The notes under the pieces are model-generated. The model made no database searches. It saw only the letters and a list, made by a program, of their open reading frames with translations, and was not told the DNA's origin. 64,000 nt of DNA, from the NCBI RefSeq assembly GCF_054482525.1, contig NZ_CM137006.1; one strand, written 5' to 3'. Below are positions 2,011-33,084 of this stretch, piece after piece (the stretch's first letter is position 1; each line of letters begins with the position of its first letter). A program made the translations under genes and the position numbers.

Positions 2011-2202
2011 CTACTTGGTCAACAGCAGCTTGCCAGCCTGAGTTTTACGGAGCAGATATTCTTGCCCGTCATGATCGATAATCAGTTTGCCATCCGGACC
2101 TAACAGTGTCTGGCTGGAAATTCGCCGAATAGGCTGCGGGGAAGCGGTCTTGTGATTGGCATCCGTTTCAGGCGTGAGTTTTCTGCTATCCGTATAACGC
2201 AT
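2011..2202 (-). CDS. hemP: Hemin uptake protein HemP family (YdiE), 63 aa
   Basis: Internal ATG of the 72-aa ORF gives the 63-aa product [14 protein letters not shown]...; conserved position between selO and aroH. Confidence 0.8.
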
Positions 2203-2333
2203 AAAAATTAATAATAATTGATATAACAATGATTCTTATTATCAATATTCTGGCGGGCCAGAGCAAGCAGTAATTTGTTGAGAAGACAACAAGTTGCGCA
2301 GAAATGCCCATTCCGTCAGGAATGGGCACGCAT

Positions 2334-3380: not shown

Positions 3381-3536
3381 TACAAGTCTCAGAAATTTGT
3401 TGCTTCTACGGCAGGACTACCGGGAAGTGATGCGCATCACGATAAACCAATCGCAGCTGATTTCAAGTGCGAGGTGTGTCACACCTCGCCGGGTGGTTAG
3501 CATGATAACAAAAAAACAAGTTAATGCACTAGTTCT

Positions 3537-4370
3537 CTAGTACATTCGACGGCTAAGGCCCATGATATCGAGGATCTTGGTGGCAATCTCTTCTACCGAA
3601 TAATTGGTACTGTTAATCCACGGGATCTGATTTTTACGGTACAAGGCTTCTACTTCCGCGACTTCCATCCTGCACTGACGAAGCGAGGCATAGCGACTGT
3701 TCTCCCGACGTTCTTCGCGAATCGCCGCCAGACGTTCCGGGTCGATAGTCAGGCCGAACAATTTATGCTGAAGCGGTTTGAGCGACGCGGGTAGCACCAG
3801 ATTATCCATATCGTCGGCAATAAAGGGGTAGTTTGCCGCGCGGATACCAAATTGCATTGCCAGATACAGACTGGTGGGGGTTTTACCACAGCGAGAAACG
3901 CCGAGCAGGATCACCTGAGCCTGGTCCAGATTGCGTAACGAAATGCCATCATCGTGGGCGAGGGTGTAATCAATCGCAGCAATGCGCGCATCATATTTAT
4001 TGAGATTATTAGGGTTAAGGCCATGGGTACGATGAGCAATCGGCGTGGGATCCAGTTTCATCTCTTGTTGTAGCGGGGCAACCAGCGCCTGAACGATATC
4101 CTGGCAAAAGCCTTCACTTTGCAAGATGATGGCGCGAATCTCCGGCAACACGATGGAGTAGAAGACCAGCGGGCGCACACCTGTCTGGTGATAAATTGCG
4201 TCAATCTGATCCTTCACTGCCCGTGCACGGCTCTCATTTTCGACAAACGGCAGCGTAATGCTGCTGATAGTGACGGGAAATTGTGACATTACTGCGTGTC
4301 CTAATACCTCCGCAGTTATTGCCGTACCATCAGAAATATAAAAAACGTGGCGATCAACAGCATTATCCAT
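3537..4370 (-). CDS. ppsR: PEP synthase regulatory protein (bifunctional kinase/pyrophosphorylase) PpsR/YdiA, 277 aa
   Basis: 277-aa ORF; divergent from ppsA as in K-12. Confidence 0.92.
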
Positions 4371-4600
4371 TTTGTTCTTCCCGTGATGCAGACATAATTC
4401 TATGAAAGCATAAATTAAAAACGCACAGAAGCGTAGAATGTTATGTCTGGTTTATAAAATGAACCTTCAATTTTATTATTTATGAAAACAGCATTTCATT
4501 TTTATGGTTTCGTTTATACCGATGGTTTATGTGGAAATTGTCGAATAGAGCAGGTTTGCGCAACGCTGGGATCAGTCTTAAAAAGTAAAAAAATATATTT

Positions 4601-4616
4601 GCTTGAACGATTCACC
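4601..4616. promoter_or_regulatory. Candidate Cra (FruR) operator upstream of ppsA
   Basis: gcttgaacgattcacc resembles the Cra half-palindrome TGAA-CG-ATTCA, ~90 bp upstream of the ppsA start; ppsA is a known Cra-activated gene. Confidence 0.35.
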
Positions 4617-4702
4617 GTTTTTTTCATCCGGTTAAATATGCAAAGATAAATGCGCAGAAATGTGTTTCTCAAACCGTTCATTTATCACAAAAGGATTGTT
4701 CG

Positions 4703-7081: not shown

Positions 7082-7116
7082 AATAAATCCCCGGCGGCGT
7101 TTTGTCGCCGGGTTTA
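7082..7116. terminator. Bidirectional Rho-independent terminator between convergent ppsA and fadK
   Basis: GC stem cccggcg...cgccggg with an A-run upstream and T-run downstream, directly after the ppsA stop. Confidence 0.6.
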
Positions 7117-7137
7117 TGTGATCCCCGAAGATGAAAC

Positions 7138-8838
7138 TTATTCAATCTCTTCACAGACATCCTGAGTTAATCGCCGCATAATATCTTTCCTTAACAAAAA
7201 CTTTTGTATTTTACCTGAGGCAGTGCGCGGTAGTTTTTCGATTACCACGATATGTTCAGGATATTTATATTTCGCGACCCGTTTACGGCTAAAAAAAGCC
7301 ACCACCTCTTCCAGCGATAATGAATGATGCGGTGCTTTCAGCACGACATAAGCGCATGAGCGTTCACCTAAACGTTCATCGGGCATCGCAACCACACAGG
7401 CATCGTGAATTTTAGGATGCTGCAATAAAATATCTTCTACTTCACGGCTGCTAATATTTTCGCCGCCGCGGACAATAATATCTTTCTTGCGCCCGGTTAT
7501 TTTTATATAGCCAGCCTCATCCATGCGGCAGAGATCGCCGCTGTAATACCAGCCTTCTTCATCCAGCGCACGGGCGGTTAATTCAGGTTCATCAAAATAC
7601 CCCATAAACACATTGGGGCCACGCGAGGCTTCTTCACCTTCGTAACCTGGCGGTAAGGTCTTGCGTGCGTCATCGACCACTTTAATCTCAACTCCTGCGG
7701 CAGCGTAACCATCGGTGTGCATAAAGCGCGATAAAGGATCGTCGAGATTCACCACTGCGTGCGGCGAACTTTCTGTGGAACCATAAACACTTAATAATTT
7801 AATGCCGTGCTGCTGGCATTCACGCGCCACTTTTTTGGGGATTGTGGTCCCGCCGCAAAGAAAGAAGCGCAGCGCTGAAAGGTCTGCGGGTTGTTTCTCC
7901 AGTAAATTCAAAAGATCATAGACAAACGGCGTTGCGCCGAGCATACAGGTGCAACGCTGCTGCTCAAGCAGCGCGAGACACGCATCAGGAGTGAAAATAT
8001 CTAACAACACGCTGCGAGCGCCAATTAAGAATGGTGCCGTTACGCCATGCAGAAAGCCCGTTGCATGACCAAGTGGCGCAGGCATCATAAAGACATCCTG
8101 CCAGGTCAGATTCAACCGCGCGCAATAAGCCCGCTCACTGGCGAGAATATTGTTATGCGTTAGCATCACGCCCTTTGGCAGACCCTCGGTTCCGGAGGTA
8201 AACAGCACCGCGGCTAATTCATCGCCGTGGACCGTTATCGCCGTGGTCAGAGGAGTATTGTCGGCGATAATCTGACTTAATGAGAGGGAAGAGGTGGCGG
8301 GAGCCAGTTTGTCCACGCCGACAATTTGTTGTAGTTGTGGAAGCTGATTTTGCAGCGGCAGGATTAAATCTACCGGACGCGTTTGTTTAAACAACGTCGG
8401 AGCAAAGAACATTTTTGCCTGACACTTATTGAGCACCCATACCAGTTCTGCTTCCCGCCAGGAAGGCAACAGCGGTACGGAAACCGCACCGATTTTCAGG
8501 CAGGCAAGATAGATAACGGTAAATTCACACCAGCCAGGCAGTTGAAATGCGATGCGATCGCCTGATTCAATACCCTTCGCTAACATCCAGTTTGCCAGAC
8601 AGCTCGCGGCGTGATCGAGCGCGCTATAGGTGTATGATGCACCATGATTATCGACCACGGCAATTTTGTCTGGCATCGCACGAGCGGTCTGCTGCCAGTA
8701 ATCGGCCAGCGAAGCATCGCCCCATAGCCCTTGCTGACGATACGCCGCACGACGTTGTTCGTTAAACGTTAATGTCACTTTCATTTTGGACTCTCGAGAC
8801 AGAACATCAGGCCCGAGATGCGGGCCTGTGGGATGCAT
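7138..8838 (-). CDS. fadK: Short/medium-chain acyl-CoA synthetase FadK (YdiD)
   Basis: 566-aa ORF with AMP-binding enzyme signature; an alternative internal start MKVTLTF at 8784 would give 548 aa. Confidence 0.88.
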   Translation of the reverse strand: MHPTGPHLGPDVLSRESKMKVTLTFNEQRRAAYRQQGLWGDASLADYWQQTARAMPDKIAVVDNHGASYTYSALDHAASCLANWMLAKGIESGDRIAFQLPGWCEFTVIYLACLKIGAVSVPLLPSWREAELVWVLNKCQAKMFFAPTLFKQTRPVDLILPLQNQLPQLQQIVGVDKLAPATSSLSLSQIIADNTPLTTAITVHGDELAAVLFTSGTEGLPKGVMLTHNNILASERAYCARLNLTWQDVFMMPAPLGHATGFLHGVTAPFLIGARSVLLDIFTPDACLALLEQQRCTCMLGATPFVYDLLNLLEKQPADLSALRFFLCGGTTIPKKVARECQQHGIKLLSVYGSTESSPHAVVNLDDPLSRFMHTDGYAAAGVEIKVVDDARKTLPPGYEGEEASRGPNVFMGYFDEPELTARALDEEGWYYSGDLCRMDEAGYIKITGRKKDIIVRGGENISSREVEDILLQHPKIHDACVVAMPDERLGERSCAYVVLKAPHHSLSLEEVVAFFSRKRVAKYKYPEHIVVIEKLPRTASGKIQKFLLRKDIMRRLTQDVCEEIE

Positions 8839-14632: not shown

Positions 14633-16228
14633 TTAATTAGCCGCTTCAGGCAGGACAAAACCCATCGCCGCATCGATAAATAATCTTTCGTCCATCAGTT
14701 TGAGTTCTGGCGAAATCACTGGGGTGAAATCCATTTTGTCGAGAATATCTTTTTGTAAATCGACGCCAGGAGCGATTTCGATTAAATGCAGGCCGTCTTC
14801 TTTTAGCGTGAATACGGCGCGCTCAGTGATATAACGAACATCCAGTCCTCGCTCGAGAGCGATTTTTCCGCTGAAAGTAATTTCTGGTAGTTCCCGAATA
14901 AATTTCTTCACCCGTCCTTCCTGGACGATATTTAATTTGCCGTCGGCAATTTCTGTTTTTAAACTGCCCGCAGTTAATGTGCCGCAGAAAACGATTTTCT
15001 TCGAAGTGGCACTGATATCAATAAATCCACCGGTGCCCATGATTTTACCATTGAATTTATGCACGCCGACGTTACCGTGCTGGTCGACTTCAGCAAAACT
15101 CAAATAACAAACATCCAGACCGCCACCGTGATAAAAATCAAACTGGGACGTCATATCCAGAATGGCACGGGTATTCACGTTCGCGCCAAAGGCGATCCCC
15201 TGTGAAGTAATACCGCCAATTGGGCCTGTTTCTACCGTCAGAATAAAGTCATCAGCACAACCTTCTTCCCGGGCGACCAGGCCAATGCCGTCAGCAATAC
15301 CGACGCCGACATTCCCCACTGCGCCTTTGCGCATTTCGAATAATGCACGCCGTGCAACTAATTTACGTTGGTTTAGGGGCAGGCTAAGTTTGGTGCTGTC
15401 ATCAAGGGTGAAGTCACCAGAAATAAAGCGGTTAACCGGTGCACCGCCATACAGTTGGGTTTGATCCGGATCGACTACCACAATATCCACCAGATAACCC
15501 GGAATACGGACAGATTTAGGATGCAGCGTGGCTTTCTTAACCATCTTCTGCACCTGCATCATCACAATACCGCCGTTATTGTGCACCGCCTGAGCAATAA
15601 CCAATGCGTCGAGATACATCACCTCATCTTCAAAAGTGGCGTAGCCTTCACTGTCGCAGGTGGTAGCGCGAATGAAGGCAATATCTGGCGCTATCGCTTT
15701 GTAATAGAGATATTCTTTGTTTTCAAACTCGACCAGTTTAATCAGGTCTTCTTTAGTGACTTCATTCAGTTTGCCGCCTTGCTGGCGTGGATCGACAAAT
15801 GTTCCGATACCAATATCACTAATAATACCAGGCTGGTGGGCTGCGGCGGCGCGTAAGGTTTGTGTAAGTACACCTTGTGGATAGTTATAAGCAATAATTT
15901 TATTTTGTTCTGCGAGATCAGAAATACGCGGCGATTGTCCCCAGTGCCCGCATAATGCCCATTTCACCAGACCTTCTTGCGCCAGCGGACTAATACCGCG
16001 GTCGGCGCGATCGCCAAGCCCTGTTGGACTAATAATCGATAAATTACGTGGCGTTTGAGTCTGTTTATATTTATCAGCAAGAGCAGTAATTAACGTGGTG
16101 GCTTCCAGAATACCGCCGCCAGCGCCTAACACACAAAGTGTTGCTTCGTCGGGAATATAATTCACCGCTTCCTGTGCCGACAGGACCGGCACTCGTCCAT
16201 TAATACGAGGTGGTTTTACAGGTTTCAT
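14633..16228 (-). CDS. ydiF: Acetate/short-chain acyl-CoA transferase YdiF, 531 aa
   Basis: 531-aa ORF; CoA-transferase family sequence. Confidence 0.9.
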   Translation of the reverse strand: MKPVKPPRINGRVPVLSAQEAVNYIPDEATLCVLGAGGGILEATTLITALADKYKQTQTPRNLSIISPTGLGDRADRGISPLAQEGLVKWALCGHWGQSPRISDLAEQNKIIAYNYPQGVLTQTLRAAAAHQPGIISDIGIGTFVDPRQQGGKLNEVTKEDLIKLVEFENKEYLYYKAIAPDIAFIRATTCDSEGYATFEDEVMYLDALVIAQAVHNNGGIVMMQVQKMVKKATLHPKSVRIPGYLVDIVVVDPDQTQLYGGAPVNRFISGDFTLDDSTKLSLPLNQRKLVARRALFEMRKGAVGNVGVGIADGIGLVAREEGCADDFILTVETGPIGGITSQGIAFGANVNTRAILDMTSQFDFYHGGGLDVCYLSFAEVDQHGNVGVHKFNGKIMGTGGFIDISATSKKIVFCGTLTAGSLKTEIADGKLNIVQEGRVKKFIRELPEITFSGKIALERGLDVRYITERAVFTLKEDGLHLIEIAPGVDLQKDILDKMDFTPVISPELKLMDERLFIDAAMGFVLPEAAN

Positions 16229-19529: not shown

Positions 19530-20744
19530 TTACCCACCCGGAGCGGCATTTTCCTTTAGCGAGTGATGCCACGTTTCTTTGCGGCTGCGTAAGCCGATAA
19601 ACAGTGCCAGTAAAAAGCCGATGGCAGCGATGGCGGTATCGAACCACATAATATCGGCAATACTTCTTTGGGACAGATGAGCCGTAATCAACGGAATAGT
19701 AAAGGTCGCAATACTGCCCGCACTGTAATAGATCCCTGTAGCTTTACCTTTAGCGTAGGGGAAACGTTCAGCCATTAATGTCAGGCCAATTTGCACAACA
19801 CCTCCAGCAGAGGTAAAACCAATGACAAAAGCAAATATTATCACCACATAAAATGTGGGATGCAGACAGACGGTAAACAGAGCAATAAATGAGATAAAGG
19901 TGTACAGCATCAGTAATGTTGTTGGGCGAACGGTATTACGAATGAGTGGAGCGGTGATAAATACACAAAGCAGCGAACCCACGGTGTAGATACTGAGTAG
20001 TTTGATCGACATAGTGTATGACATGCCTGCAACAAATTGTCCGTACTGTGCCAGCCACTGGCTAACCAGATAAAAGGTTGCCATTGAGATATAGCCATAT
20101 AAGGTATAACTGGCTAAATCGATTATTGAGCAGCGATGTTCCGTAGAGCTGGTGGTTTTCTCTATGACAGGTAAGCGACGACCCGGATGGGGTGGGAACG
20201 TACAACGGTATAAAAACAGAGCGTTAATAAACATAATGCCTGCGGCAATCATAAAGGACCAGCCGAACCACAGTTCAGCCCACACTAACAGGCTGATGAT
20301 TAGCGGTAATAAAAATTGCCCGCTGGAAACAAATGCTTTAATTAAAATATTGGCTGTACCCGGTGAGCGTGGAAAAGCTTCCATCAAACTGGGATAGGTG
20401 CCTGCATCGAGAAAACTGTTTGCCATTCCCGCCAGAAAGCCCAAACCATAAGCGATAATGATGTTATTGGTGTGCAGGATGCCAAAAAAGAAGGCCATAT
20501 AGCAGCACATCCCGAGCATGATAAAAGGGCGGCGACCAAAGCGATCGGATAATAATCCTGCAAAAAGCAAGACACTTAATCGACCAATACCCAGCGATGA
20601 GATAACTATTGAGACGCCTGCGGCATTAGTCTGCCAAAGCGTCTCCAGCGAGGCCATATTCAGGCTCATCAAAATGACGCCCATACCATGCACCAGGTAA
20701 TTAAAATACAACCCAAGTGCGGTAGGGAAATAGGGATTTTTCAT
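19530..20744 (-). CDS. ydiM: MFS transporter YdiM, 404 aa
   Basis: 404-aa hydrophobic multi-TM ORF; synteny. Confidence 0.85.
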   Translation of the reverse strand: MKNPYFPTALGLYFNYLVHGMGVILMSLNMASLETLWQTNAAGVSIVISSLGIGRLSVLLFAGLLSDRFGRRPFIMLGMCCYMAFFFGILHTNNIIIAYGLGFLAGMANSFLDAGTYPSLMEAFPRSPGTANILIKAFVSSGQFLLPLIISLLVWAELWFGWSFMIAAGIMFINALFLYRCTFPPHPGRRLPVIEKTTSSTEHRCSIIDLASYTLYGYISMATFYLVSQWLAQYGQFVAGMSYTMSIKLLSIYTVGSLLCVFITAPLIRNTVRPTTLLMLYTFISFIALFTVCLHPTFYVVIIFAFVIGFTSAGGVVQIGLTLMAERFPYAKGKATGIYYSAGSIATFTIPLITAHLSQRSIADIMWFDTAIAAIGFLLALFIGLRSRKETWHHSLKENAAPGG

Positions 20745-20843
20745 AGGTTCTACTTAGCAAAGGTGCTTTAAAAAGTGAAGCGATGTTGTATCAGCATCCG
20801 TTCATTATTGTTGTAACAACGACAATTCCTTTCTGTGGGAAAA

Positions 20844-21200
20844 TTAACAAAGGCGCTCCAGATCGTGTGCATATAATTCAGCGGCTACCGATTGATAGAT
20901 CTTCCAGTCAATAAAATTGCCATCAGGGTAGACACGTTGAAACGCGGTTAAGTCGGGGAAAAAACGCATGGTGTTGTTGCCGATGCGGTTATTTATTTTC
21001 TCTATGATGGCATGAAGATGTTTTTTTCGTTGCTGTCGCATAGCCAACAGTTGCTCGACCACACGATCAGGAATGGCGCATTTGCCATTTTCCCACTGAC
21101 GCCAGCTTTCATTGTCACCGGTCTGGGCAATCCAGGTCGCGCATTCATCAATAGTCATAGCAAAAATATGGCGAAGAGCCTGGAGTTCATAAGCGTTCAT
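20844..21200 (-). CDS. ydiL: Uncharacterised protein YdiL, 118 aa
   Basis: Internal start MNAYELQALRHIF gives 118 aa; this is the gene next to rprA in K-12. Confidence 0.8.
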   Translation of the reverse strand: MNAYELQALRHIFAMTIDECATWIAQTGDNESWRQWENGKCAIPDRVVEQLLAMRQQRKKHLHAIIEKINNRIGNNTMRFFPDLTAFQRVYPDGNFIDWKIYQSVAAELYAHDLERLC

Positions 21201-21337
21201 CGTGTAATGGCTGCATGAAATAAACAATAAAATATAAATAACATTATCAGCCTGCCGACGGCTTGAAGAGAGTCACAGTATCTTGTGCAACATTATTGGA
21301 AAGCGTGAGGGGCGAGGTAGCGAAGCGGAAAAATGTT

Positions 21338-21407
21338 AAAAAAAAGCCCATCGTGGGAGATGGGCAAAGACTACACACAGCAATTCGTTGTTTCACTCAG
21401 GGGATTT
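21338..21407. repeat. Left attachment-site direct repeat (duplicate of the rprA 3' end and terminator, 70 bp)
   Basis: Identical to 32979-33048: aaaaaaaagcccatcgtgggagatgggcaaagactacacacagcaattcgttgtttcactcaggggattt. Confidence 0.9.
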
Positions 21408-21424
21408 AAGTCATTGATTGATTT

Positions 21425-22054
21425 ATGGGTATGCGGTTTTTCGGCATAAACCAAATTAAGCAAGGCTTGAAAATGGACACACAAATTGCACACATATCGC
21501 ACACAAATAAAAAGGGGTATGTATGGCGCAAGCGTTATGAAAAACGCACGATTGAAATCATCCTACGCACCCGTGATAAATCAATTGCCATAAAAAGAGC
21601 GGCATCAATAACAATTCGCTATATGGAATTAAAATCACTTGACGTTCCATTTAAAGCAATGCTGGAAATGTTAAAAAAGTTTCGTGATGGTCTGATTACG
21701 TCACATGACATTGAGCGCTTAAGGTCGATTGCGATAGCTTCACAGGAAGCTCCACACGCCGCTGTAACCGCTTCGCCTATACAAAGTGTTGGCTATGATG
21801 TCAAAACCGCTCAGAAAGCCGCACAGGGGCATTCCCTTGGCGATGCTCAAAAAGTGTACTTTGGCGCCAACACCGAATGGAAAGAAAAAACCATCAAGGC
21901 TTATTCTGGTTGTATCGACCGCTTTATTTTATGGTGCGCTAATAAAAATATTCATACCGTGGAAGAAATAACGAAAGAGCATGTGATTTCATTTAAATCC
22001 AGCATGGATGAAGAAAAATTAGCCTCCATGACTAAATTTCGCATAATAATATGA
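21425..22054 (+). pseudogene. Tyrosine-integrase-like N-terminal fragment (core-binding/SAM-like region only, catalytic domain missing)
   Basis: 209-aa ORF; the segment KTIKAYSGCIDRFILWCANKNIHTVEEITKEHVISF resembles an integrase core-binding domain; no R..HxxR..Y catalytic region follows; sits next to the att repeat. Confidence 0.4.
21477..21509. repeat. Three tandem ~11-bp repeats (acacacaaatt / gcacacatatc / gcacacaaata), candidate integrase arm-type sites, left end
   Basis: Direct tandem repeats ~70 bp inside the left att repeat; a matching triplet lies ~70 bp inside the right repeat. Confidence 0.5.
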
Positions 22055-22362
22055 TTCGGGTTAGCATAACCAATACTTTTATTAAAGCCTATGTATGCAC
22101 CAATTTCTTTATACTTTAACTTAGTGAAATCTGAAATAATACTCAGTGGCTGCAATACGTTATGTCCATTGTGCGCCCCTTCATTAGCGCAAAATCCTGT
22201 ATTTGCAAACTGACCTTTATCACGCCAGATGAATCTATCAACGCCGCCACATACAGGACATGGTGTATGTTCATTTGGTTTAATATCAATTCCAAAATCA
22301 TTCATATGCACCAATGGATTCTTTTTAATATAATTATTCAAATCAGTAAAGAAATTAGCCAT
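21952..22362 (-). pseudogene. DNA primase zinc-ribbon domain fragment (Toprim and downstream domains absent)
   Basis: Motif HTPCPVCGGVDRFIWRD typical of primase Zn-ribbons; ORF stops soon after; its 3' end overlaps the convergent integrase fragment. Confidence 0.45.
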
Positions 22363-22681
22363 TATATTTGCTCCCGTATCGCCTTGCTGGATGCTTTGCA
22401 AAGAAATCAACGATATCTTGTTTGCGATACCAGATATAACCGTCTAATTCATGATGAATTTCTTGCGGAAATTCTTTAGGGTTAAAGCGTTTGGCGGCAT
22501 AAAACATTGGTTTAGTAACACCAGATAAAGCAATTGCATCATTGCCACACACAAGCCCTGTAAGTTGCACTTTCTGCGATTGTTCTTTTATCTGTGCCGC
22601 GATTAGCCTTTTATTCTCATTAACGTATTTTTCAATCTGTAGCTTACGCATTTTTTCGCGCATGTAATTTATATCGGTCAT
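22355..22681 (-). CDS. AlpA/Xis-like small DNA-binding protein, 108 aa
   Basis: C-terminal region FYAAKRFNPKEFPQE...YIWYRKQDIVDFF resembles the AlpA-family FPK...W..R..DI..W pattern. Confidence 0.45.
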   Translation of the reverse strand: MTDINYMREKMRKLQIEKYVNENKRLIAAQIKEQSQKVQLTGLVCGNDAIALSGVTKPMFYAAKRFNPKEFPQEIHHELDGYIWYRKQDIVDFFAKHPARRYGSKYNG

Positions 22682-22697
22682 TTTAGTATCCTATATA

Positions 22698-24200
22698 TTA
22701 AGTCATTATCTGTGCTGGTGGGGTAATGATATGAATTATCCCTCGATTATTCATAATGAATCTACATCGTTCAAGCCCTGTAATTGCTCGCTTTATATTA
22801 TTTGGCTGCATTTTATACTCAGTTTTTAATGCCTTCGTTAAATCGGATTCATGTACACAGCCATCAGCACTAAATTCCATTAACTGTATTATCATTTCTA
22901 AAACTCGTTCTTGTGCTGGTGCATTTTTCTTTTTTAACTCGCTCATATATGAGTCGTAAGCGAGAGTATTATTACGCGCAGCATTTTGAGTAAAATTAAC
23001 TCCTGCTTCATATGATTCTGCATTTACAGCGTTTTGCATTAATTGCTTATTTTGCTGTTGCGTTGTTAGTGGTTGCCGCTGTTGCGTGTGCATTTGCGCA
23101 TAATCATTTATCGGTGATTGCTGCATGATAAATGGTTCATCATTAGCTTGTTTGCGTTCTATTTTTCCTGCTGCAATTACTGGAGTTGGCCTATCAATAA
23201 ATACCAACGTCTTAGTATTGGCGTTTACCTGATAACCTTTTGCATTTTCTTCGGGATAATCGCATAATTCATTATTAATATCATGTAATTCACAGACGGT
23301 AATTCCGTTATCCGCTGTGCATAAATCAAATTGCATCACTGGTAATTTTGCAGCGCTACGGTTTTTTTCGATAGTGAGTGATACGGATAACCCAAAATCA
23401 TTACCCTGCATTTGCTCTAGTTTAATGACTGTATCAGAGTCATTTTTAAGGGTAATGGCTCCTTTCATACCTTTAGCCGCATCTTTGCCGCCGTGGTGAA
23501 CCATCAAGACAAAAGAATTTGTTTCTACTGCAATTCTTTTCAAAATCGAAATCAGCTTACGCATTGCAATAGCATCATTTTCATCAGGATTTTCCATATC
23601 CAAAATGGTTTTTCCATCAATGCTTTTTTTTGTGTAGTATGCCAAAAATGAAGAAAGCGTATCAAAACAAATGATGCCGCCTTTGTTATTGGTGATTTTA
23701 TTTACATCATTTATTATTCGATTCTGTATTTCTTTATCAAATAAGTTTATTTGTGGTGACAAGATGTGCATTCTGTCATTTTTAACGCCACTATTAAACT
23801 TATTAGACCACGCTGTATTTCGATCTTTGATTTCAACGCCTGTTTCACCATCAAAATAAAAAGCATGGCATTCTTTAGCAACTCGCAAACCAGCCCACGG
23901 TTTACCCTGTGCAACTCTGTTTAAAAGAGATAATGCCGCAAATGATTTGCCTGTGTTGGATTCACCATAAAGGAAGCCGACCTGTTTTCGGTTAAATAGA
24001 TTTTCAATTACAGGGCGTAACCGCTTTTCTGATTGCAATTGAATTTCAGCTAATTCAATTGCACACAATTCATCATTTATACCATCATATTCAGACCACT
24101 CACCGTAGTTGGCGGGTGCGTAATAATCAATCGCGAGAGTGTAATAATAATCAGGAATAGCAGACCAATCAATAAACATTCCTGTGCACATATCATTCAC
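22698..24200 (-). CDS. RecA-like (RepA/AAA_25-type) replication ATPase, 500 aa
   Basis: Walker A GESNTGKS near residue 80; hydrophobic strand plus HHGGKD Walker-B-like region; Q/N-rich linker and C-terminal domain; flanked by AlpA-like genes and iterons. Confidence 0.55.
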   Translation of the reverse strand: MNDMCTGMFIDWSAIPDYYYTLAIDYYAPANYGEWSEYDGINDELCAIELAEIQLQSEKRLRPVIENLFNRKQVGFLYGESNTGKSFAALSLLNRVAQGKPWAGLRVAKECHAFYFDGETGVEIKDRNTAWSNKFNSGVKNDRMHILSPQINLFDKEIQNRIINDVNKITNNKGGIICFDTLSSFLAYYTKKSIDGKTILDMENPDENDAIAMRKLISILKRIAVETNSFVLMVHHGGKDAAKGMKGAITLKNDSDTVIKLEQMQGNDFGLSVSLTIEKNRSAAKLPVMQFDLCTADNGITVCELHDINNELCDYPEENAKGYQVNANTKTLVFIDRPTPVIAAGKIERKQANDEPFIMQQSPINDYAQMHTQQRQPLTTQQQNKQLMQNAVNAESYEAGVNFTQNAARNNTLAYDSYMSELKKKNAPAQERVLEMIIQLMEFSADGCVHESDLTKALKTEYKMQPNNIKRAITGLERCRFIMNNRGIIHIITPPAQIMT

Positions 24201-24247: not shown

Positions 24248-24400
24248 TTATATAGATGCTTTGTTTTTTTTGTTTTTATCGCAAGTAACTAAATGCTCTT
24301 TTGGAAATTCTTTAGGGTTAAAACGTTTAGCCATATAAAAAGCGGTTGAGCCAATTTTAGCCAAAAGTTGTGCTTCACGAGGTGTAATTAAGTCGCTCAT
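24248..24400 (-). pseudogene. Second AlpA-like fragment (50 codons), partial duplicate of the 22355-22681 gene
   Basis: Translation MSDLITPREAQLLAKIGSTAFYMAKRFNPKEFPKEH... shares the FY-AKRFNPKEFP motif with the downstream AlpA-like gene; weak RBS; not in the ORF track (<60 aa). Confidence 0.3.
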
Positions 24401-24957: not shown

Positions 24958-25236
24958 TGATGAATGAAGGTCGTTCAAGTGAATGAACTGTGAGTTGGGT
25001 AAACCCCTAGGGGTTGGGGGTGTTGTCGATTTGTGGTAAATTCCTTCTGCCAGCGTGAAAAAGGCGCTGGTGGGGATTTGCAGCCCCAAACAAACAAAAC
25101 CATTGGCAAGGAATTGCCGATGCGCGTGCGCACGTCAGTTATGGCGGTCACGGCGAGGGAGTCGAAAGGCTCGCCAGTTTTGTTTGTTTGCTGGTACTGC
25201 AAACCTCGTCGTGATCGTCACCACGGGGATGCATGT

Positions 25237-25488: not shown

Positions 25489-25705
25489 ATAAGTCAATGC
25501 GTCTCTGATTAAAAGGGGCGCATTTTTGTTTTTACTGACTTGTTGCAATGTGGGATATGTTGCGCACGTGTGTGCGATAGTTGTTAATTGTTTTTTGTAC
25601 TAGTTAACAAATACGAATTTTCTGAGGGTGCTATTTTGGGTTTTAGCTGCGGCTTCGCCTTGCTGCCCTTCGGGCTGGTGGTGCAAGAAGAATGTTTGAA
25701 AACTT

Positions 25706-25751
25706 CCTTTTCTTTGCTTCACCAGCCCCGTAGGGGCGTGAGCGTAGCGAA
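25706..25751. repeat. 46-bp direct repeat, copy 1 (ccttttctttgcttcaccagccccgtaggggcgtgagcgtagcgaa)
   Basis: Identical to 29912-29957; contains a gcccc-gta-ggggc hairpin; ~100 bp upstream of the 383-aa gene. Confidence 0.85.
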
Positions 25752-25849
25752 CCTAATCACTTTGATTTTGACACATATCGGTTCTATCATTTTCAGGAAA
25801 ATCATCATAGAATTATATAAAACATACGATTTTTAAGGTGAATTTTTAA

Positions 25850-27001
25850 ATGCACGAGAAAGCGCAAACAAAAATAAAAGATACTATTAGAGAAATACTA
25901 ATCACTCCAGCAATCGCTTTTACTGGTCGTGCAGGTCATTTTGATTTTTCATTATATGAAGTTTTAGCAAATGAGCTTAACAAAAGAAAGATAAAGTTTA
26001 AAATTGATAAATTATCATGTTGGATTATTTTTGATGGCGCAAAAAAACATTACTTTCAAGATAAATCAATTACTGACGCACAAGCGATAAATGATTTTGT
26101 GGATACGTTATGTAGTATTTACTGTGAAACACCTATGGATTACTCCATCGATTTTCACTTTAGAAATTTAAAAATCGATATCAACCCGATTGATTATGAG
26201 TTTGTTTCAATTAGAGCGGGTGAGGATATTGGTATTGGTTTGTTCGCTGAAAAAGAAAAGTATGCGATTGCGAGCATTAAAAAGAATGGCTATCTTTCAG
26301 GTGGTTATCCTAGCTCATTTATAAAATCGATTTTGCAAGATTTGAAAATCTTCATTTTTTTGATTAAAAGCATTAATTTGATTAAGACAGGAAAAACCAA
26401 TTTAGCATCCACGTTATTTCAATCGATGTCCGGTCATGCTGACACAATTAAGATTGATTGCGTTAATGTTAAATATCCTTGGATGAATAGCAGTGTCCAT
26501 ATTTCAGAGTCGGTAGGGAAATTTTTACACAACTTTATCTTCAATTATGAATTTGAAGAAGGCTACATTATAGAAAAAATAGATCATTCGCTTCAGCTAA
26601 TGAATGCAATAGTAAAAGATGAGTCAAAAGAAGCCTTGCGTATCAAGGCTGCAATTGATTGGTTGGTGCAATCTGAAATCACTGATGATGAAACCATGTC
26701 TTTTATTCAAATTTGCATGGGGCTTGAATCAATTTTTGGTGATGATGATTATGAGGGTGGCCTAACAAACATACTATCTGATAGATGCGCCTACTTAATA
26801 GGGAATAAAATTAAAGAGAGGAGATTTATAAAGGACACATTTAAAAAAATATATCAAGTTAGGTCAAAGATAGTGCATGGCGTAAGAAATCATTTATCAG
26901 ATGATGAATTATATTTTAGGCATTTAGCATATTCATATTTAGAGCGTTCTATTCTAAAAGAAATTCAAAATTTAGACCTGCAATCCCATCAGGCGACGTG
27001 A
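25850..27001 (+). CDS. Hypothetical protein with C-terminal HEPN-like R-x4-H-G motif, 383 aa
   Basis: AGGTGA RBS 8 nt upstream; C-terminal ...KKIYQVRSKIVHGVRNH matches the R-x4-6-H signature of HEPN RNases; strongly AT-rich. Confidence 0.4.
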   Translation: MHEKAQTKIKDTIREILITPAIAFTGRAGHFDFSLYEVLANELNKRKIKFKIDKLSCWIIFDGAKKHYFQDKSITDAQAINDFVDTLCSIYCETPMDYSIDFHFRNLKIDINPIDYEFVSIRAGEDIGIGLFAEKEKYAIASIKKNGYLSGGYPSSFIKSILQDLKIFIFLIKSINLIKTGKTNLASTLFQSMSGHADTIKIDCVNVKYPWMNSSVHISESVGKFLHNFIFNYEFEEGYIIEKIDHSLQLMNAIVKDESKEALRIKAAIDWLVQSEITDDETMSFIQICMGLESIFGDDDYEGGLTNILSDRCAYLIGNKIKERRFIKDTFKKIYQVRSKIVHGVRNHLSDDELYFRHLAYSYLERSILKEIQNLDLQSHQAT

Positions 27002-27236
27002 AGCTTGTGCGCTTCATTATGGGGCTAGCCGCCATCAGGCAAGGCGATTGCATGTCTTTGCGCTTCGTCGCCTCCTGATGCGTTCTGTGAAGATGTCGAT
27101 CATTTAGTGAGCGCGGCGGATGTTGCTGATGGATAGTGTGGATGCAACTGAACCATACCGCGAAAAGTGGCAGGATTGCGCCGGAATCGTACCGCTAGCA
27201 GGTGTTGAGTGTAAGAAGTAGTGATTGGGTGAAATG

Positions 27237-27275
27237 AAGATAGAAGGCCGCATAGAGGCATACAACTAGCCTTAT
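27237..27275 (-). terminator. Hairpin downstream of the lipoprotein gene (candidate terminator)
   Basis: ccgcata...tatgcgg stem followed, on the minus strand, by a T-rich tract. Confidence 0.35.
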
Positions 27276-27288
27276 GCGGTTGGCTGGT

Positions 27289-27732
27289 TCAGCACTGGTA
27301 AAAGTTGGCGAGGTGTGGAATATGGCTGGTGGTGGTTTCGAAAGCCTTGAGGCGTCCATTTTTATCTTTTTTCAAGTAGAGCATTTTTAGTGCTGGTGGA
27401 AATACTGAATCCATAATTCCATAAACTCCCACATTTTCGTTTTCTTCTTTAAGCATTCCCCAATATTGATAACCATTTAATGCGCTATCATCAATGCCCG
27501 TTCCAACGCGCTTAATGTGGGCAAGATATCGGCCTTTTATCGTAAAGCTAAATGATTCATCACGTTCATTTGTGCAAGTGTAAAATCCATCATCGCTTTC
27601 ATTTATAACTTCAGATGCTTCACGATTTAATGAGTACTTGTCTAAGTTGTTTATGATGTCACTTCGCTGTGCGCATCCAGTCAAATTTAGAATGGTAAAA
27701 ATTAGTACAGAAGATGCAAGATATTTGTTCAT
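27289..27732 (-). CDS. Predicted lipoprotein, ~147 aa
   Basis: N-terminus MNKYLASSVLIFTILNLTGC carries a signal peptide with lipobox LTGC; internal ATG at 27732 preferred. Confidence 0.55.
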   Translation of the reverse strand: MNKYLASSVLIFTILNLTGCAQRSDIINNLDKYSLNREASEVINESDDGFYTCTNERDESFSFTIKGRYLAHIKRVGTGIDDSALNGYQYWGMLKEENENVGVYGIMDSVFPPALKMLYLKKDKNGRLKAFETTTSHIPHLANFYQC

Positions 27733-27818
27733 TTTGATTATCCATATGAAAAGCAAGGTACTTAGATTAAATTACCCTGCTTAAGCAGTAATTAGCGGTT
27801 CCGTTAATAGAGGGTAGA

Positions 27819-28178
27819 TTATTTGTTAATTTGTTTTTTAGTGTGTGAGATAAAATTTCTAAGTAAATCTTTTTCAATTACAATTTCACATTTTAGGTTT
27901 TGGCTATCGACCGCATCAATTCTATCAAACCAAAACATTAATTCCTGGCTTGCATCGCATTTACGTTTGAATTTAATTGCCCTGCCGAATTTTTCACTTA
28001 AAGAATCATCATCACATAAAAAATAAATTTTATTATTAATGGTGATTTGAATTAAATATGTCTTCCTCGTTAGGTAATCTAACCTTTCGTTAGCTTTCAG
28101 TAAGTTAGCTTCAGCTTGTTTGATGCGTATAAGAGCATCCTCTTTGCTTAAAGGGGATGTATTGACAGACTTGATCAT
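27819..28178 (-). CDS. Hypothetical protein, 119 aa, upstream partner of the lipoprotein
   Basis: AAGGA RBS 8 nt upstream of the ATG; co-oriented with the lipoprotein gene, 86-bp gap. Confidence 0.5.
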   Translation of the reverse strand: MIKSVNTSPLSKEDALIRIKQAEANLLKANERLDYLTRKTYLIQITINNKIYFLCDDDSLSEKFGRAIKFKRKCDASQELMFWFDRIDAVDSQNLKCEIVIEKDLLRNFISHTKKQINK

Positions 28179-28287
28179 AATTTAATCCTTTGGTTAAGAT
28201 TCATCAAAAATATGCCATAAATAGCCTTGAAGGTTGTGTGGAATACATATTATGATAGCTTCATCTAATCAGCAAGGGGAATAATAG

Positions 28288-28443
28288 ATGCCTTCTAAAC
28301 GTGTTATATGCTCACTTGATGAGCAAGAGTTAGATATTCTCGAAAAATATAAATTACATTATAAAAATATGCATGGCGTAAAATTAAACAGAACGGCAAT
28401 TATCAAAATGTTGATTAGTCGTCTATCAAAAGAAATTCAATAA
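28288..28443 (+). CDS. Ribbon-helix-helix (Arc/CopG-like) small DNA-binding protein, 51 aa
   Basis: MPSKRVICSLDEQELDILEKYKLHYKNMHGVKLNRTAIIKMLISRLSKEIQ shows a beta-strand/helix/helix pattern; GGGGA RBS; divergent from the 27819-28178 operon; below ORF-track length cutoff. Confidence 0.45.
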   Translation: MPSKRVICSLDEQELDILEKYKLHYKNMHGVKLNRTAIIKMLISRLSKEIQ

Positions 28444-28495
28444 TAATTCTAATTACCAATTAATTTAAACTTCACATAATTAAAGAGGCAACTCT

Positions 28496-28810
28496 ATGCA
28501 CACTCTTTTTTCTAAATTTAAAAACAGGAAAATTAAAATGTATCAACCACGTTATAAAAGCAGAATGATTGACGATAATGAATATAATCAGGTGCTTCAA
28601 TCGAGAATGCAAAATCTTTTAAATCAATATAATAATGAGGTTTCAAACTTAACCCGCATTGGTGTTACAAATTTGGGTTTCGGCCGATGGGATAATGGAG
28701 AGAGCAAAATCAATAACCACGTTAATAAAGTAAGTGAGACTTTGGAAAAGATGCAATCTACGCAAGCCTTGATTGATGCTCTTGCAAATGAAATTACACA
28801 AACTAATTAA
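28496..28810 (+). CDS. Hypothetical protein, 104 aa
   Basis: AAGAGG RBS 8 nt upstream; no recognisable motif. Confidence 0.45.
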   Translation: MHTLFSKFKNRKIKMYQPRYKSRMIDDNEYNQVLQSRMQNLLNQYNNEVSNLTRIGVTNLGFGRWDNGESKINNHVNKVSETLEKMQSTQALIDALANEITQTN

Positions 28811-28894
28811 TCGAATGGGGGATGCTTTAAATGGTAATCGCAATCATGGTTGTAATGTTTTGGGCTTTCCTGATTCTTAAAGAGGAAATGAAAT

Positions 28895-29179
28895 ATGGTT
28901 AAATTTGGAGTGTTTTACCATCATGCATGGGGTGATGGTAAAAAGGAAATCCCGCCACCTGATTTAAATTACATCCGAACCGATCCACATAAAAATAATG
29001 AAATTGCTTTAGATGTTTTTGATTCAAGAATGGACGCACAAAAACGCGCTGATTTACTAAATTCACGCATGGCAAAAAATCAAACTGGTCAGCATTATGT
29101 TGCGCCAACAACGCAAGAAACCAAAACGGCTCAAAAGCGCTTTAAGTTTCCTTGTACTAGCATTTATGGGTGGAAATGA
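28895..29179 (+). CDS. Hypothetical protein, 94 aa (paralog family A)
   Basis: AGAGGA RBS; N-terminus MVKFGVFYHHAWGDG is similar to the next gene's N-terminus. Confidence 0.45.
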   Translation: MVKFGVFYHHAWGDGKKEIPPPDLNYIRTDPHKNNEIALDVFDSRMDAQKRADLLNSRMAKNQTGQHYVAPTTQETKTAQKRFKFPCTSIYGWK

Positions 29180-29181
29180 AA

Positions 29182-29556
29182 ATGAGTAAACAATTCGGTG
29201 TTTTCTTTTGGCGAAAAGGTGACGCTATTACCGATATCCCGTCAGATAAAAATGTTGCAAATCGCGGAGTAAAGCCTAAGCGCATTTTTTCAGATTATAT
29301 TGATGGAATGCGATATAAAGATAAAATGAATGCAACAATTCCAGCGGCGCAAAAAGGTAAATATGAATATGTATTAGCGGAAATTGTTGAACCAGACCCG
29401 AACAATACAAAGGTGTTGTTTAAATCTGGAAATTTAACAGAAGCATTAAGGGCGAAGCGACAAACAACCGAACAAATCAACCGAAATAAAATTGATGCAA
29501 TGATTAAAGAAGCCGCACACGATTACCTTTACACTATTACAGGAATGGAAAAATGA
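29182..29556 (+). CDS. Hypothetical protein, ~124 aa (paralog family A)
   Basis: N-terminus MSKQFGVFFWRKGDA parallels the upstream gene; GGTGGA RBS; start at 29182 preferred over 29170. Confidence 0.45.
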   Translation: MSKQFGVFFWRKGDAITDIPSDKNVANRGVKPKRIFSDYIDGMRYKDKMNATIPAAQKGKYEYVLAEIVEPDPNNTKVLFKSGNLTEALRAKRQTTEQINRNKIDAMIKEAAHDYLYTITGMEK

Positions 29557-29852
29557 TTATTGACGAGCGATTTATTAAATGGTCAATGGTGCTGGTGGAG
29601 GCCGGAAAGCCATCACCCAGCCTCGCGGGGCTTTATAAAGGAAACACTAAAGGATTAATCTTTTATAAAACACGTGAATTGGCATCAAATGCAGCCACTA
29701 AACGGAATGAGCAATTAGCAGGAACTAAATCAACCAGCCGATTTAAAATCATTAAATTGCATGACGCAGAAGCACAACAGAAACATGATTTTCAGTTAAA
29801 ACAGGAACGCCAGCGCCGCGATGCACGCCATATGCGCCGATTTGGTTTCTAA
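29553..29852 (+). CDS. Hypothetical basic protein, 99 aa
   Basis: 4-bp ATGA overlap with the upstream gene suggests translational coupling; Lys/Arg-rich C-terminus. Confidence 0.4.
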   Translation: MIIDERFIKWSMVLVEAGKPSPSLAGLYKGNTKGLIFYKTRELASNAATKRNEQLAGTKSTSRFKIIKLHDAEAQQKHDFQLKQERQRRDARHMRRFGF

Positions 29853-29911
29853 ATATAACTCAATAACTCAACCAATGGTGATGTTAAAGAATAAGGTGGC
29901 CTTAAATTTCA

Positions 29912-29957
29912 CCTTTTCTTTGCTTCACCAGCCCCGTAGGGGCGTGAGCGTAGCGAA
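29912..29957. repeat. 46-bp direct repeat, copy 2
   Basis: Identical to 25706-25751; 37 bp upstream of the tape-measure-like gene. Confidence 0.85.
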
Positions 29958-29993
29958 ATAAGTAACATTAATATCAAATCAGAGGTAAATAAA

Positions 29994-31982
29994 ATGGCAG
30001 GTGAAAATGCTCAATTGGGCTTTTCCGTCGATACATCGGAAGTGGAAACAGCATCAAAAAGGCTTAATGAATTAGCTAAATCAGCGCAAGGGGCGGCTGA
30101 TTCGGCTGGCAAATTATCAGATTCATTTGAGGAAAGTATGAAGGGTGTTAATTCATCAATTACTTCCAATCATCAGGCTATGCGCGAATTAACGGTAATG
30201 ATGCACGAAGCAATGTCTGGTAATTGGTCGCGCTTGCGTGGTTCTGCAATGATTATGGGCGGCGCATTGGGATTTGGTGGATTAACTAGCGGTGCGGTAG
30301 TTGGTGGAATTACGCTTGTTTCGGAAGGCATTGAATCGCTAATTGAAGGAATGCGAGAAGCTCAAAAAGCAGAAACTGAATTAAATAATTCTGCTGTAAT
30401 TACAGCAGATGTAAGCCTTTTAAATAGTGATTATGTTGATTCACTTACTATTGGTTATGAGAAATTAGGCTATTCAGCAACACAAGCAAAAGGCATGATT
30501 GCAGCGTTAAGTAATGCGGGTATGTTTGGTGATGAATTTAGTGTTGCAGGTAAACAAATTGCCGCACTATCTAAAGCGTTAGGCGGTAATTCAGACGAAC
30601 AAAAAAAATTAGCTGGTCAATTTGGTGGCTTGTATTCTGACCCGCTAGGACACGTTAACGAATTTTTCCAAGTAACAAACGGATGGATTACCAAAACCGA
30701 ACAAAACCGAATTAATGCGGCTGAACAATCGCATAATTCAGCACAAGCTGAAATGGCTATGCAAGAAGCGCTATTAGATGTTTATAAGCGTCAAACCGAT
30801 ATGCTACAGCTTAAAGCCTATTTGGAAACTAACGCCGCTACATATTCAGCCTTTCAGACGCGCGAACAATTCGGCAGCGCATGGGGTAAGGGCGAAAAAG
30901 AAAAGGCAGACGCATTTATCAAGCAATATGACGAGCGCCAGCAATCATTTAATCAGGGCGTTGAAAAGCTAAAAGGAAGCATTCACGAAACAGGACGCCA
31001 GATAAGGGAAAATGTAGAAGAATTTAATAAAGGAATGCATCCCCATAAAGTGCATACACACCACGGATTAACAGCAATTGAGAAAGCAGCTAAACAATTG
31101 GTGACCTACCAAACCCAAATTAAACAGGCTGGTTTGCAATTTGACCAGCAAATTAATTCAATTGGTGATTCAGTAAATAATGCGTGGAGTAATAAATTAT
31201 ACTCTTATTCAATGTCTTCTGACCAGAATGATTTTGCAAACCGAATTGAACAAATCAATGAACAATTCGACCGTATGCGCGAAAATGTAGACCGTTTGGC
31301 GCTGCAACATCATAAATCAATTGGTTCAAAAGAATATGTTGAAATGTTCCAAAAAATCGAATTAGGGCGCAAAAACGTATTGGCTGAAAACGTTGCTGGA
31401 TTTAATGAAATGGAGTCATTGCAGCATTCAGCGCTGGCGGGAATGGATGAGGGATGGATTAAATACCAGAAGCAGGTTAATGATGTTGCAAGCCAATCAG
31501 AGAAAGTTTTTGATACGGCTGTTGAGGGAATGACAAATTCATTAACTGATTTCTTTACAACTGGTGAGGCTGGTTGGACTAATTTTGTAAAATCAATCGC
31601 AACAATCACTGAAAAATACATGGTTCAAGATTGGATTGTTGAGCCGCTAGCAGGATTAGTAAAAGGGGGGATTAGCTCGCTATTTTCATCAAATCCATTG
31701 AGTTCAACGGCTAACACTTTTGCCGTTCCCGATATTCCAAAATTGGGCGCAACTCATTTAGGAGGCGGTCTAGGTTCGACCGCACCAGTTATCAATATCA
31801 CCATTAATGACAATGGCAACAAAGGCGGCGTTGATAGCAATGTTAGCGGCACAACAGGGCAAGTACAAAAAATGGGGGCGGCGCTAGATAAATTCCTGCA
31901 AAACTATATCAAAGAGCAAAACGTAAAATCCAACCGTCAGGGCGGGTTAAACAAAACAATGGGGAACTGGTCGACAAGATAA
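29994..31982 (+). CDS. Phage tail tape-measure protein homolog (lambda gpH-like), 662 aa, orphan
   Basis: Glycine-rich hydrophobic segment MIMGGALGFGGLTSGAVVGGITLV near the N-terminus, long helical middle, C-terminal FDTAVEGMTNSLTDFFTTGEAGWTNFVKSI and ...VINITINDNG matching, from memory, the lambda H C-terminal region; AGAGGT RBS. Confidence 0.6.
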   Translation: MAGENAQLGFSVDTSEVETASKRLNELAKSAQGAADSAGKLSDSFEESMKGVNSSITSNHQAMRELTVMMHEAMSGNWSRLRGSAMIMGGALGFGGLTSGAVVGGITLVSEGIESLIEGMREAQKAETELNNSAVITADVSLLNSDYVDSLTIGYEKLGYSATQAKGMIAALSNAGMFGDEFSVAGKQIAALSKALGGNSDEQKKLAGQFGGLYSDPLGHVNEFFQVTNGWITKTEQNRINAAEQSHNSAQAEMAMQEALLDVYKRQTDMLQLKAYLETNAATYSAFQTREQFGSAWGKGEKEKADAFIKQYDERQQSFNQGVEKLKGSIHETGRQIRENVEEFNKGMHPHKVHTHHGLTAIEKAAKQLVTYQTQIKQAGLQFDQQINSIGDSVNNAWSNKLYSYSMSSDQNDFANRIEQINEQFDRMRENVDRLALQHHKSIGSKEYVEMFQKIELGRKNVLAENVAGFNEMESLQHSALAGMDEGWIKYQKQVNDVASQSEKVFDTAVEGMTNSLTDFFTTGEAGWTNFVKSIATITEKYMVQDWIVEPLAGLVKGGISSLFSSNPLSSTANTFAVPDIPKLGATHLGGGLGSTAPVINITINDNGNKGGVDSNVSGTTGQVQKMGAALDKFLQNYIKEQNVKSNRQGGLNKTMGNWSTR

Positions 31983-32043
31983 TATTATGTTGCTTAGTAA
32001 GTCTAAACTTTACGCCCTAATTAGGGCGTTTTATTTAAAAAAG

Positions 32044-32661
32044 TTAATTTGCTGTATTTTCTCTCATCTTTCTAAGTTCTGGCAATACTTTCTTATAGAA
32101 TTTCGTAGTGGAATCAGCGCAGTAGTTTTGCAGATACTTATAGTTTTCTTCAAATTTAGGGAGATCTTTAGCTACCGTCAATTGCTTTGGTAAAGTTCCG
32201 GTAGCATCATCGGTTATATCAAATGTTATTGAATTATGTTTTCGATCTTCATTAACTTTTTTTAAAGTGGCAACAATAGGGCTTTTATCCATAGAACCAT
32301 CTATTAGTTGGCGAACTTGAAACTTCCTTGGGATTATAAAATTAATTACTGACGGAGGTTCACTATTTAATGTTATATTCCAAGTTATTGGCATAGCATC
32401 ACATAAACCTTCAGATATTATTTCACCATCAATTGAACCATCAGAATTGGCGATAAATTGTATTATAACAAGTGGTTGATCTTTATTTAAGCCAAGATCT
32501 CCACTATTTATTATATATTCAGCGTCTGTCGACCATTTGCCTGTTAGAAATTCTTTTTGATAAAGTGCTTCATTTATTTCACCTCTATATGGTAAATATA
32601 GACCTATAGCACCAATTGCAACACCTAATACAGTGCATATTGTTGTTATTCGTCCACTCAT
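32044..32661 (-). CDS. Membrane-anchored hypothetical protein, 205 aa
   Basis: N-terminal hydrophobic helix ITTICTVLGVAIGAIGLYLPY; AT-rich; at the island edge. Confidence 0.45.
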   Translation of the reverse strand: MSGRITTICTVLGVAIGAIGLYLPYRGEINEALYQKEFLTGKWSTDAEYIINSGDLGLNKDQPLVIIQFIANSDGSIDGEIISEGLCDAMPITWNITLNSEPPSVINFIIPRKFQVRQLIDGSMDKSPIVATLKKVNEDRKHNSITFDITDDATGTLPKQLTVAKDLPKFEENYKYLQNYCADSTTKFYKKVLPELRKMRENTAN

Positions 32662-32875
32662 ATCACACTCGTTATCTTATCCTTGTTGTAGTTAAGCATT
32701 TTATTTTATTTTTTTATTGTGAAAATGGCTAGTTTTAGTTGGGTCTTGCGCTGAATCTAACGAGTGCTTACCCCGTGAAGTGATTTATGATTAAAGTTCG
32801 TTTTGTTTTTGGTTAAAAAATGAACATGTGAGTGCTTTGGAAAATTTCTGTAACACTCACCTGATTTACGCTGGT

Positions 32876-32909: not shown

Positions 32910-32978
32910 ATCGCATACCTTTAATGACCTAATTTCTTCAAGCCCCTGCATTGCTGCGTTTGTCGTGATTTTCGGCAT

Positions 32979-33048
32979 AAAAAAAAGCCCATCGTGGGAG
33001 ATGGGCAAAGACTACACACAGCAATTCGTTGTTTCACTCAGGGGATTT
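32979..33048. repeat. Right attachment-site direct repeat (3' 70 nt of intact rprA)
   Basis: Identical to 21338-21407. Confidence 0.9.
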
Positions 33049-33084
33049 CCATGCTTATAAATCAATATGTTGATTTATAACCGT
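32979..33084 (-). ncRNA. rprA: Small regulatory RNA RprA (activator of rpoS translation)
   Basis: Minus-strand sequence ACGGTTATAAATCAACATATTGATTTATAAGCATGGAAATCCCCTGAGTGAAACAACGAATTGCTGTGTGTAGTCTTTGCCCATCTCCCACGATGGGCTTTTTTTT matches RprA from memory, including the intrinsic terminator; lies between ydiK and ydiL. Confidence 0.85.

Follow-up and report, generated by a model that had tools for sequence, protein, structure and literature searches.

Defective prophages and decayed islands of E. coli are flanked by att sites, contain a recombinase without a catalytic domain and are locked in place and inherited vertically, with their other genes still open. Phage satellites of the P4-like and PICI types encode an integrase close to attL as well as a primase and a helicase, and P4-like satellites also carry a small helix-turn-helix (HTH) regulator and an immunity RNA. 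Satellite P4 has a CI immunity RNA, and P1 and P7 have a C4 RNA; both are hairpin RNAs processed by RNase P and are related to each other (PMC5499578). In primases of the T7 gp4 and P4 alpha type, a zinc ribbon precedes the Toprim domain.

We analysed a 64,000-nt stretch of DNA (the window; contig NZ_CM137006.1 of assembly GCF_054482525.1), which belongs to an E. coli chromosome and matches strains SCU-102 and 19KM1776 at 100% identity and PCN033 at 99.9%. It contains an island of ~11.6 kb that is located between ydiL and ydiK and inserted in the 3′ end of the small RNA (sRNA) gene rprA. Two convergent open reading frames (ORFs) at positions 21425–22410 correspond to the truncated integrase and primase genes of this island. 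We consider the region to be the scar of one illegitimate deletion of ~1.9 kb within the integrative island, and assign this reading a probability of about 92%. As in cryptic prophages, the element is att-flanked, its recombinase is without a catalytic domain and its other genes are open. In contrast to cryptic prophages, one deletion disabled two convergent genes here and removed a third, and the 11.6-kb island sits in an sRNA gene and contains no capsid, terminase or packaging genes detectable with PHROGs or NCBIfam.

The hallmarks of an integrative island are present: repeats that duplicate the target, an integrase gene at one end, an empty site in other genomes and an rprA gene rebuilt at attR (Table 1). 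Both att repeats are undamaged and identical to each other, and the integrase stub starts 66 bp away from attL. Most E. coli genomes align to the query only up to position 21407, which corresponds to the empty site. The island family is found in 5 of 5,426 complete genomes, and our literature searches returned no island or satellite that integrates in rprA. The complete rprA gene at attR has a functional-looking sequence. RefSeq labels the hybrid at attL (21336–21456) a second rprA gene. This copy is devoid of the native 5′ part and the promoter, and the strain probably carries one real rprA and one hybrid pseudo-copy.

Table 1 Features of the rprA island. Positions refer to the window; those prefixed L003 refer to the related island of FREC5.
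Feature	Position	Strand	Evidence and remarks
Hybrid pseudo-RprA at attL	21336–21456	-	Rfam, 81.4 bits, over the gathering threshold
attL, 71-bp direct repeat	21337–21407	-	Copy of the rprA 3′ end; identical to 32978–33048
Integrase stub, 193 aa	21473–22054	+	Pfam; alignment to the 401-aa FREC5 integrase
Primase stub, 136 aa	21952–22362	-	Pfam; alignment to the 330-aa FREC5 primase
Deletion junction	22036–22037		1,874 bp absent relative to FREC5 (L003 1338–3211); blastn blocks and flank comparison
108-aa protein	22355–22681	-	Intact; 8-nt overlap with the primase start; FREC5 and S10 orthologues of the same length; dN/dS ~0.1
Replicative-helicase-like ATPase, 493 aa, AAA_25/RepA-DnaB type	22698–24179	-	Intact; partner of the lost primase
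C4-type antisense RNA	25137–25225	+	Rfam RF01695, 65.8 bits against a gathering score of 45
Ner/SfsB-like HTH regulator, 83 aa	25237–25488	+	phrog_769 (1.8e-30); NF007670 below its cutoff
~90-bp repeat copies	25665–25757, 29912–29957; L003 1999–2068, 7107–7215, 11351–11409
Other island genes	25850–32661		383-aa HEPN-annotated protein, seven small ORFs, 662-aa and 205-aa ORFs
Tape-measure-like protein, 662 aa, lambda-type	29994–31982	+	PHROG 339/24; TIGR01541 82 bits, below cutoff
205-aa ORF	32044–32661	-	In a variable slot (31984–32839) adjoining attR
attR and complete rprA	32977–33084	-	RprA 118.8 bits, full-length model; repeat core 32978–33048

Related intact islands occupy the same rprA site in the E. 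coli genomes FREC5 and S10. Each encodes a 401-aa tyrosine integrase, a 165-aa nuclease of the GIY-YIG/T5orf172 type and a 330-aa primase. The integrase gene runs rightward from attL and faces the nuclease and primase genes. In blastn alignments, window positions 20700–22036 correspond to positions 1–1337 of the FREC5 locus (L003) and positions 22037–22636 to 3212–3811. The left breakpoint is the same in three references, with the alignments of FREC5, S10 and the L010 lineage (94.7% identical to the integrase part of the window) all ending at 22036; the right breakpoint is set at the nucleotide level by FREC5 alone. The original prediction, made from the window sequence, held that a deletion had taken the 3′ portions of both convergent genes and proposed a search for full-length relatives and mapping of the junction. 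Both steps were carried out, and the intact FREC5 and S10 genes together with a 1,874-bp gap at the single break between 22036 and 22037 support this claim. The loss of a whole nuclease gene between integrase and primase had not been foreseen. The deletion has fused integrase codon 188 to primase codon 108/109. It has taken away the catalytic domain and the last part of the core-binding domain of the integrase, the entire GIY-YIG/T5orf172 nuclease gene, one copy of an island repeat of ~90 bp and the Toprim domain of the primase.

The 209-aa plus-strand ORF (21425–22054) is the longest possible frame. The likely start is the ATG at 21473 (MDTQ..., with AAGG ahead), which is the RefSeq start, is conserved in the relatives and gives 193 aa. 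Codons 1–188 (21473–22036) are native, followed by five junk codons (FRIII), read in antisense from the primase gene, and a stop. This native part shares 82% identity with residues 1–188 of the FREC5 integrase, and divergence begins at the DNA junction. The sole Pfam match of the 209-aa ORF is Phage_int_SAM_4 (PF13495, E 1.5e-6), which covers model positions 14–60 of 85. In the FREC5 integrase this domain spans model positions 14–79; the window copy is present but cut. The catalytic Phage_integrase domain (PF00589), located at residues 234–385 in FREC5, has no Pfam match in the window ORF, and the inferred catalytic residues R264, H348, R351, H374 and Y384 of the FREC5 integrase all lie past residue 188. 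Judged by these domains, what remains in the window is a fragmentary member of the tyrosine recombinase family, not a working one.

On the minus strand, the longest possible ORF encodes 152 aa (22410–21952). Its likely start, again the one chosen by RefSeq and conserved in the relatives, is the ATG at 22362 (MANFF..., GGGAG ahead), which gives 136 aa. Codons 1–108 (22362–22037) are native, include the zinc ribbon and are 95% identical to residues 1–108 of the FREC5 primase, and the following 28 codons are antisense to the integrase gene. Pfam detects only Zn_Ribbon_Prim (PF08273, E 1.1e-8) in the 152-aa ORF, at residues 48–82 and spanning the motif CPVCGGVDRF, with no match to the Toprim domain (PF13362). 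In the FREC5 primase, the zinc ribbon (residues 32–66) is followed by Toprim_3 (216–310), the same order as in T7 gp4 and P4 alpha-type primases, and the protein is encoded beside a separate helicase gene. Unlike these enzymes, the window copy is reduced to the zinc ribbon and ~40 further residues. Both Toprim motifs are missing from it: IGEG, which starts at residue 218 of the FREC5 primase, and TDND, which lies within LTDNDIS (starting at residue 269). By its domain content, the predicted product cannot be a primase.

Pfam agrees with the earlier assignment of the plus-strand ORF to the N-terminal part of a recombinase and of the minus-strand ORF to a primase zinc ribbon that ends ahead of Toprim, and adds that the core-binding domain itself is also cut. 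Both ORFs, as well as the overlap of their 3′ ends at 21952–22054, were found as described. The overlap measures 103 bp and exists because each stub reads over the junction into the antisense strand of its partner until a stop is reached.

No bases are shared between the two breakpoints in the flank comparison, for which FREC5 was the only reference; both this result and the lost length rest on a cousin that is ~93% identical near the scar, and not on the parent. As far as such a cousin can tell, the mechanism would be illegitimate rather than repeat-mediated recombination. Microhomology was judged against FREC5 only, because a closer intact ancestor was not found. The FREC5 integrase retrieved no relative from the GTDB species-representative genomes, and the window helicase retrieved nothing from IMG/VR. 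In a protein search with the 188 native integrase residues, the only matches were the truncated cluster and proteins that are fragments or more distantly related, and PDB sequence searches with the intact integrase and the intact primase gave no match.

The same junction is present in three complete genomes and hundreds of draft contigs and thus goes back to a single, real event. The exact 193-aa stub is found on 297 contigs (422 index blocks) and the 136-aa stub on 316, with the intact FREC5-type integrase on 67. In both protein clusters at 90% identity, every member has the same junction tails, ...MTKFRIII and ...IIMRNLVMEANF... An assembly artefact was rejected on the basis of the identical stretch in the three independent complete genomes and of the truncated proteins on ~300 contigs. 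The flanks of the three scar-bearing complete genomes are 100% identical over ~45 kb (98.7–98.9% in the next best genome), and these genomes therefore represent one clone. The chromosomal context on the ydiL side is the same in 24 of 24 contigs read, and we saw no sign of the deleted island moving between backgrounds among these contigs and the three complete genomes. No second integrase or primase copy was detected in the scar-bearing genomes by blastn with words of 11 and the FREC5 integrase–nuclease–primase region as the query. In PCN033, an IS1B element interrupts ydiF (L015 27509–29261, approximately window positions 15350–15950); the gene is intact in the window and in the other two strains of the clone.

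To test for relaxed selection on the integrase stub, changes were counted in a three-taxon comparison: 22 of those on the window branch are synonymous and 28 nonsynonymous, a ratio of ~0.4 and not 1, which does not establish that selection has relaxed. Most of this divergence is probably older than the deletion. Relative to FREC5, dS is 0.38 in the integrase part and 0.08 in the primase part, and the island is a mosaic. A branch dN/dS below 1, a frame that is open across hundreds of contigs and intact att repeats as putative binding targets would all fit a real deletion after which the integrase stub was retained as useful, either as an att-binding regulator or as a dominant-negative blocker serving to stabilise the island or to exclude relatives from rprA. 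We regard such a role as improbable. The core-binding domain that it would depend on is itself cut, and the members of the cluster show just single-residue variants and N-terminally shortened calls, with no conserved new function apparent. PCN033 differs from the window by seven SNPs over 34 kb, two of which are nonsynonymous changes in the 564-nt stub; the events are few, but the pattern looks like drift. The open frame is equally explained by a recent deletion.

It is more doubtful still that the two ORFs encode complete stand-alone small proteins, one a SAM-like DNA-binding protein and the other a zinc-ribbon protein. RefSeq does give both as ordinary CDSs and not as pseudogenes, and both frames are open and have plausible ribosome-binding sites. 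However, the ORFs are colinear with the N-termini of full-length proteins of 401 and 330 aa, from which both depart at a single DNA position, the SAM_4 match breaks off at model position 60 of 85, and the C-terminal tails are antisense of each other; the junction mapping leads us to reject this reading. We likewise dismiss as next to impossible that the short form is ancestral and that FREC5 and S10 gained 1.9 kb by insertion, a reading that has nothing specific in its favour beyond the lack of polarity in a two-state comparison, since the extra DNA is common to two islands with a mutual identity of only ~77%, completes two frames in frame and adds both catalytic domains, which is implausible for an insertion.

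The deletion scar, our preferred reading, has consequences for the mobility of the island. We infer that both stubs are non-functional pseudogenes. The loss of the catalytic residues strongly suggests that the island has lost the ability to excise and to prime its replication, as originally predicted, along with the ability to integrate; the clonal distribution fits this view. Unable to move, it would therefore have vertical transmission within its host clone as its only route of inheritance. In principle, the missing functions could be supplied in trans by an unrelated integrase, by a helper phage or by DnaG of the host. The scar would explain why the island occupies a constant site and is restricted to one E. 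coli clone, to which the porcine ExPEC strain PCN033 belongs. The two RefSeq CDSs, one of them annotated as "primase-helicase zinc-binding domain-containing protein", are the halves of one scar and should be marked as pseudogenes.

All 12 of the other island genes that were compared are free of internal stops and match their FREC5 counterparts in length. The dN/dS values against FREC5 range from 0.08 to 0.52, the highest coming from genes with only a handful of changes. This set comprises the genes for the 493-, 108-, 83-, 383- and 662-aa proteins and seven small ORFs, leaving out the 50-aa and 205-aa ORFs. The intact remainder is compatible with selection on cargo and equally with a recent deletion, and most of the divergence from FREC5 is older than the event.

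The 493-aa helicase matches PHROG 3228 (replicative helicase-primase, 2e-32), PHROG 2850 and Pfam AAA_25, and has a dN/dS of 0.08 relative to FREC5. The helicase is swapped within the family: the window and FREC5 encode the AAA_25 type, and S10 a 594-aa DUF3987 protein that is P4-alpha-like (L004 16915–18699). FREC5 contains an extra 96-aa ORF (L003 3867–4157) that is absent from the window. The helicase gene is flanked by the genes of the 108-aa protein (22355–22681, minus strand) and of a 50-aa protein (24248–24400, minus strand), which share the motif AKRFNPKEFP. No family match was found for the 108-aa protein in PHROGs and NCBIfam, or for the 50-aa protein. The two may be paralogous small DNA-binding proteins of the excisionase/AlpA-like kind.

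Intact relatives of the island resemble P4-like and PICI satellites in their size (~12–14.5 kb), in the integrase gene by attL and in the possession of a primase and a helicase. The small HTH regulator and the C4/CI-type RNA, which resembles the P4 immunity RNA, are further features in common with P4-like satellites. Unlike in the P4-like satellite, primase and helicase are separate genes in the rprA island, which also adds the 662-aa tape-measure-like and HEPN-annotated proteins. Homologues of Sid, Psu, Delta, AlpA, capsid-redirection proteins and the small terminase were not found among the island proteins scanned with PHROGs and NCBIfam. In its gene content, the island looks like a phage satellite.

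The C4-type RNA lies directly upstream of the 83-aa HTH gene and the 383-aa HEPN-annotated gene. C4 RNA and HTH gene likely form the immunity or regulatory region of the island, and suggest that the island contains an RNA-based immunity or antirepressor switch of the kind known from P1/P7 or P4. The closest phage tape-measure proteins are ~32% identical to the 662-aa protein over 14% of its length, and no other virion gene was recognised in the island. Five small unassigned ORFs at 28288–29852 precede the tape-measure-like gene, and two of them, of 124 and 99 aa, overlap. The tape-measure gene is split in one sub-lineage (L016).

Other routes of decay can be observed in the family. In FREC5-like islands, the A7 tract of the integrase gene (FREC5 L003 ~1400–1410, integrase codons ~210–213) has slipped by +1 or -1 in five independent assemblies (loci L005, L007, L008 and L009), to A8 in two and to A6 in three, which splits the integrase into 224 + 185 or 216 + 185 aa. 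These variants represent either recurrent slippage that inactivates the integrase or homopolymer sequencing errors. The L009 and L010–L012 lineages have lost the DNA that extends from the nuclease gene as far as the HTH regulator (FREC5 L003 ~2069–7215), and the L010–L012 form was seen in at least seven samples. This loss is attributed to recombination between the ~90-bp direct repeats after the integrase gene and before the 383-aa gene, although the L009 and L010 contigs come from short reads and a mis-join at the repeat is possible in principle. The repeat contains a hairpin and occurs in up to three copies per island: one follows the integrase gene, and the others precede the 383-aa and tape-measure genes. 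Its first copy has gone from the window with the deletion. L010 has additional integrase frameshifts and an IS insertion, and retains only the 383-aa homologue and a PIN_12 gene. Within the family, the mobility and replication module is lost repeatedly and the HEPN-annotated gene is kept. This pattern lends a degree of indirect support to the original idea that the island may be a domesticated remnant persisting for its cargo.

A wider reading, which we put forward tentatively and consider unlikely to hold as a whole, is that these islands form an undescribed satellite family that encodes its own tape-measure protein and combines a primase-helicase replicon with an RNA switch of the C4/CI type. 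The mobility module, comprising integrase, nuclease and primase-helicase, would be lost by four routes (scar deletion, A7 slippage, recombination at the ~90-bp repeats and further frameshifts), and the scar would be a snapshot of fixation as a cargo or defence island. This reading includes that most non-mobility genes stay open and that the deleted form is the one most frequently sampled. The decay itself is of the ordinary kind for mobile elements, and the island family is the more interesting object. As a rare, apparently undescribed family that targets an sRNA gene, it may offer a compact case of satellites or islands becoming fixed host genes.

The 383-aa and 205-aa proteins have no match in Pfam or PADLOC. 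PADLOC matched no defence system among the island proteins scanned, and the FREC5 nuclease gave only weak PDC-S57 matches. The slot adjoining attR may be a hotspot for cargo or defence genes. It holds the 205-aa ORF in the window, is empty in FREC5 and carries the gene for a 381-aa PIN_12 protein in S10 (L004 26588–27733) and in L010 (4146–5291).
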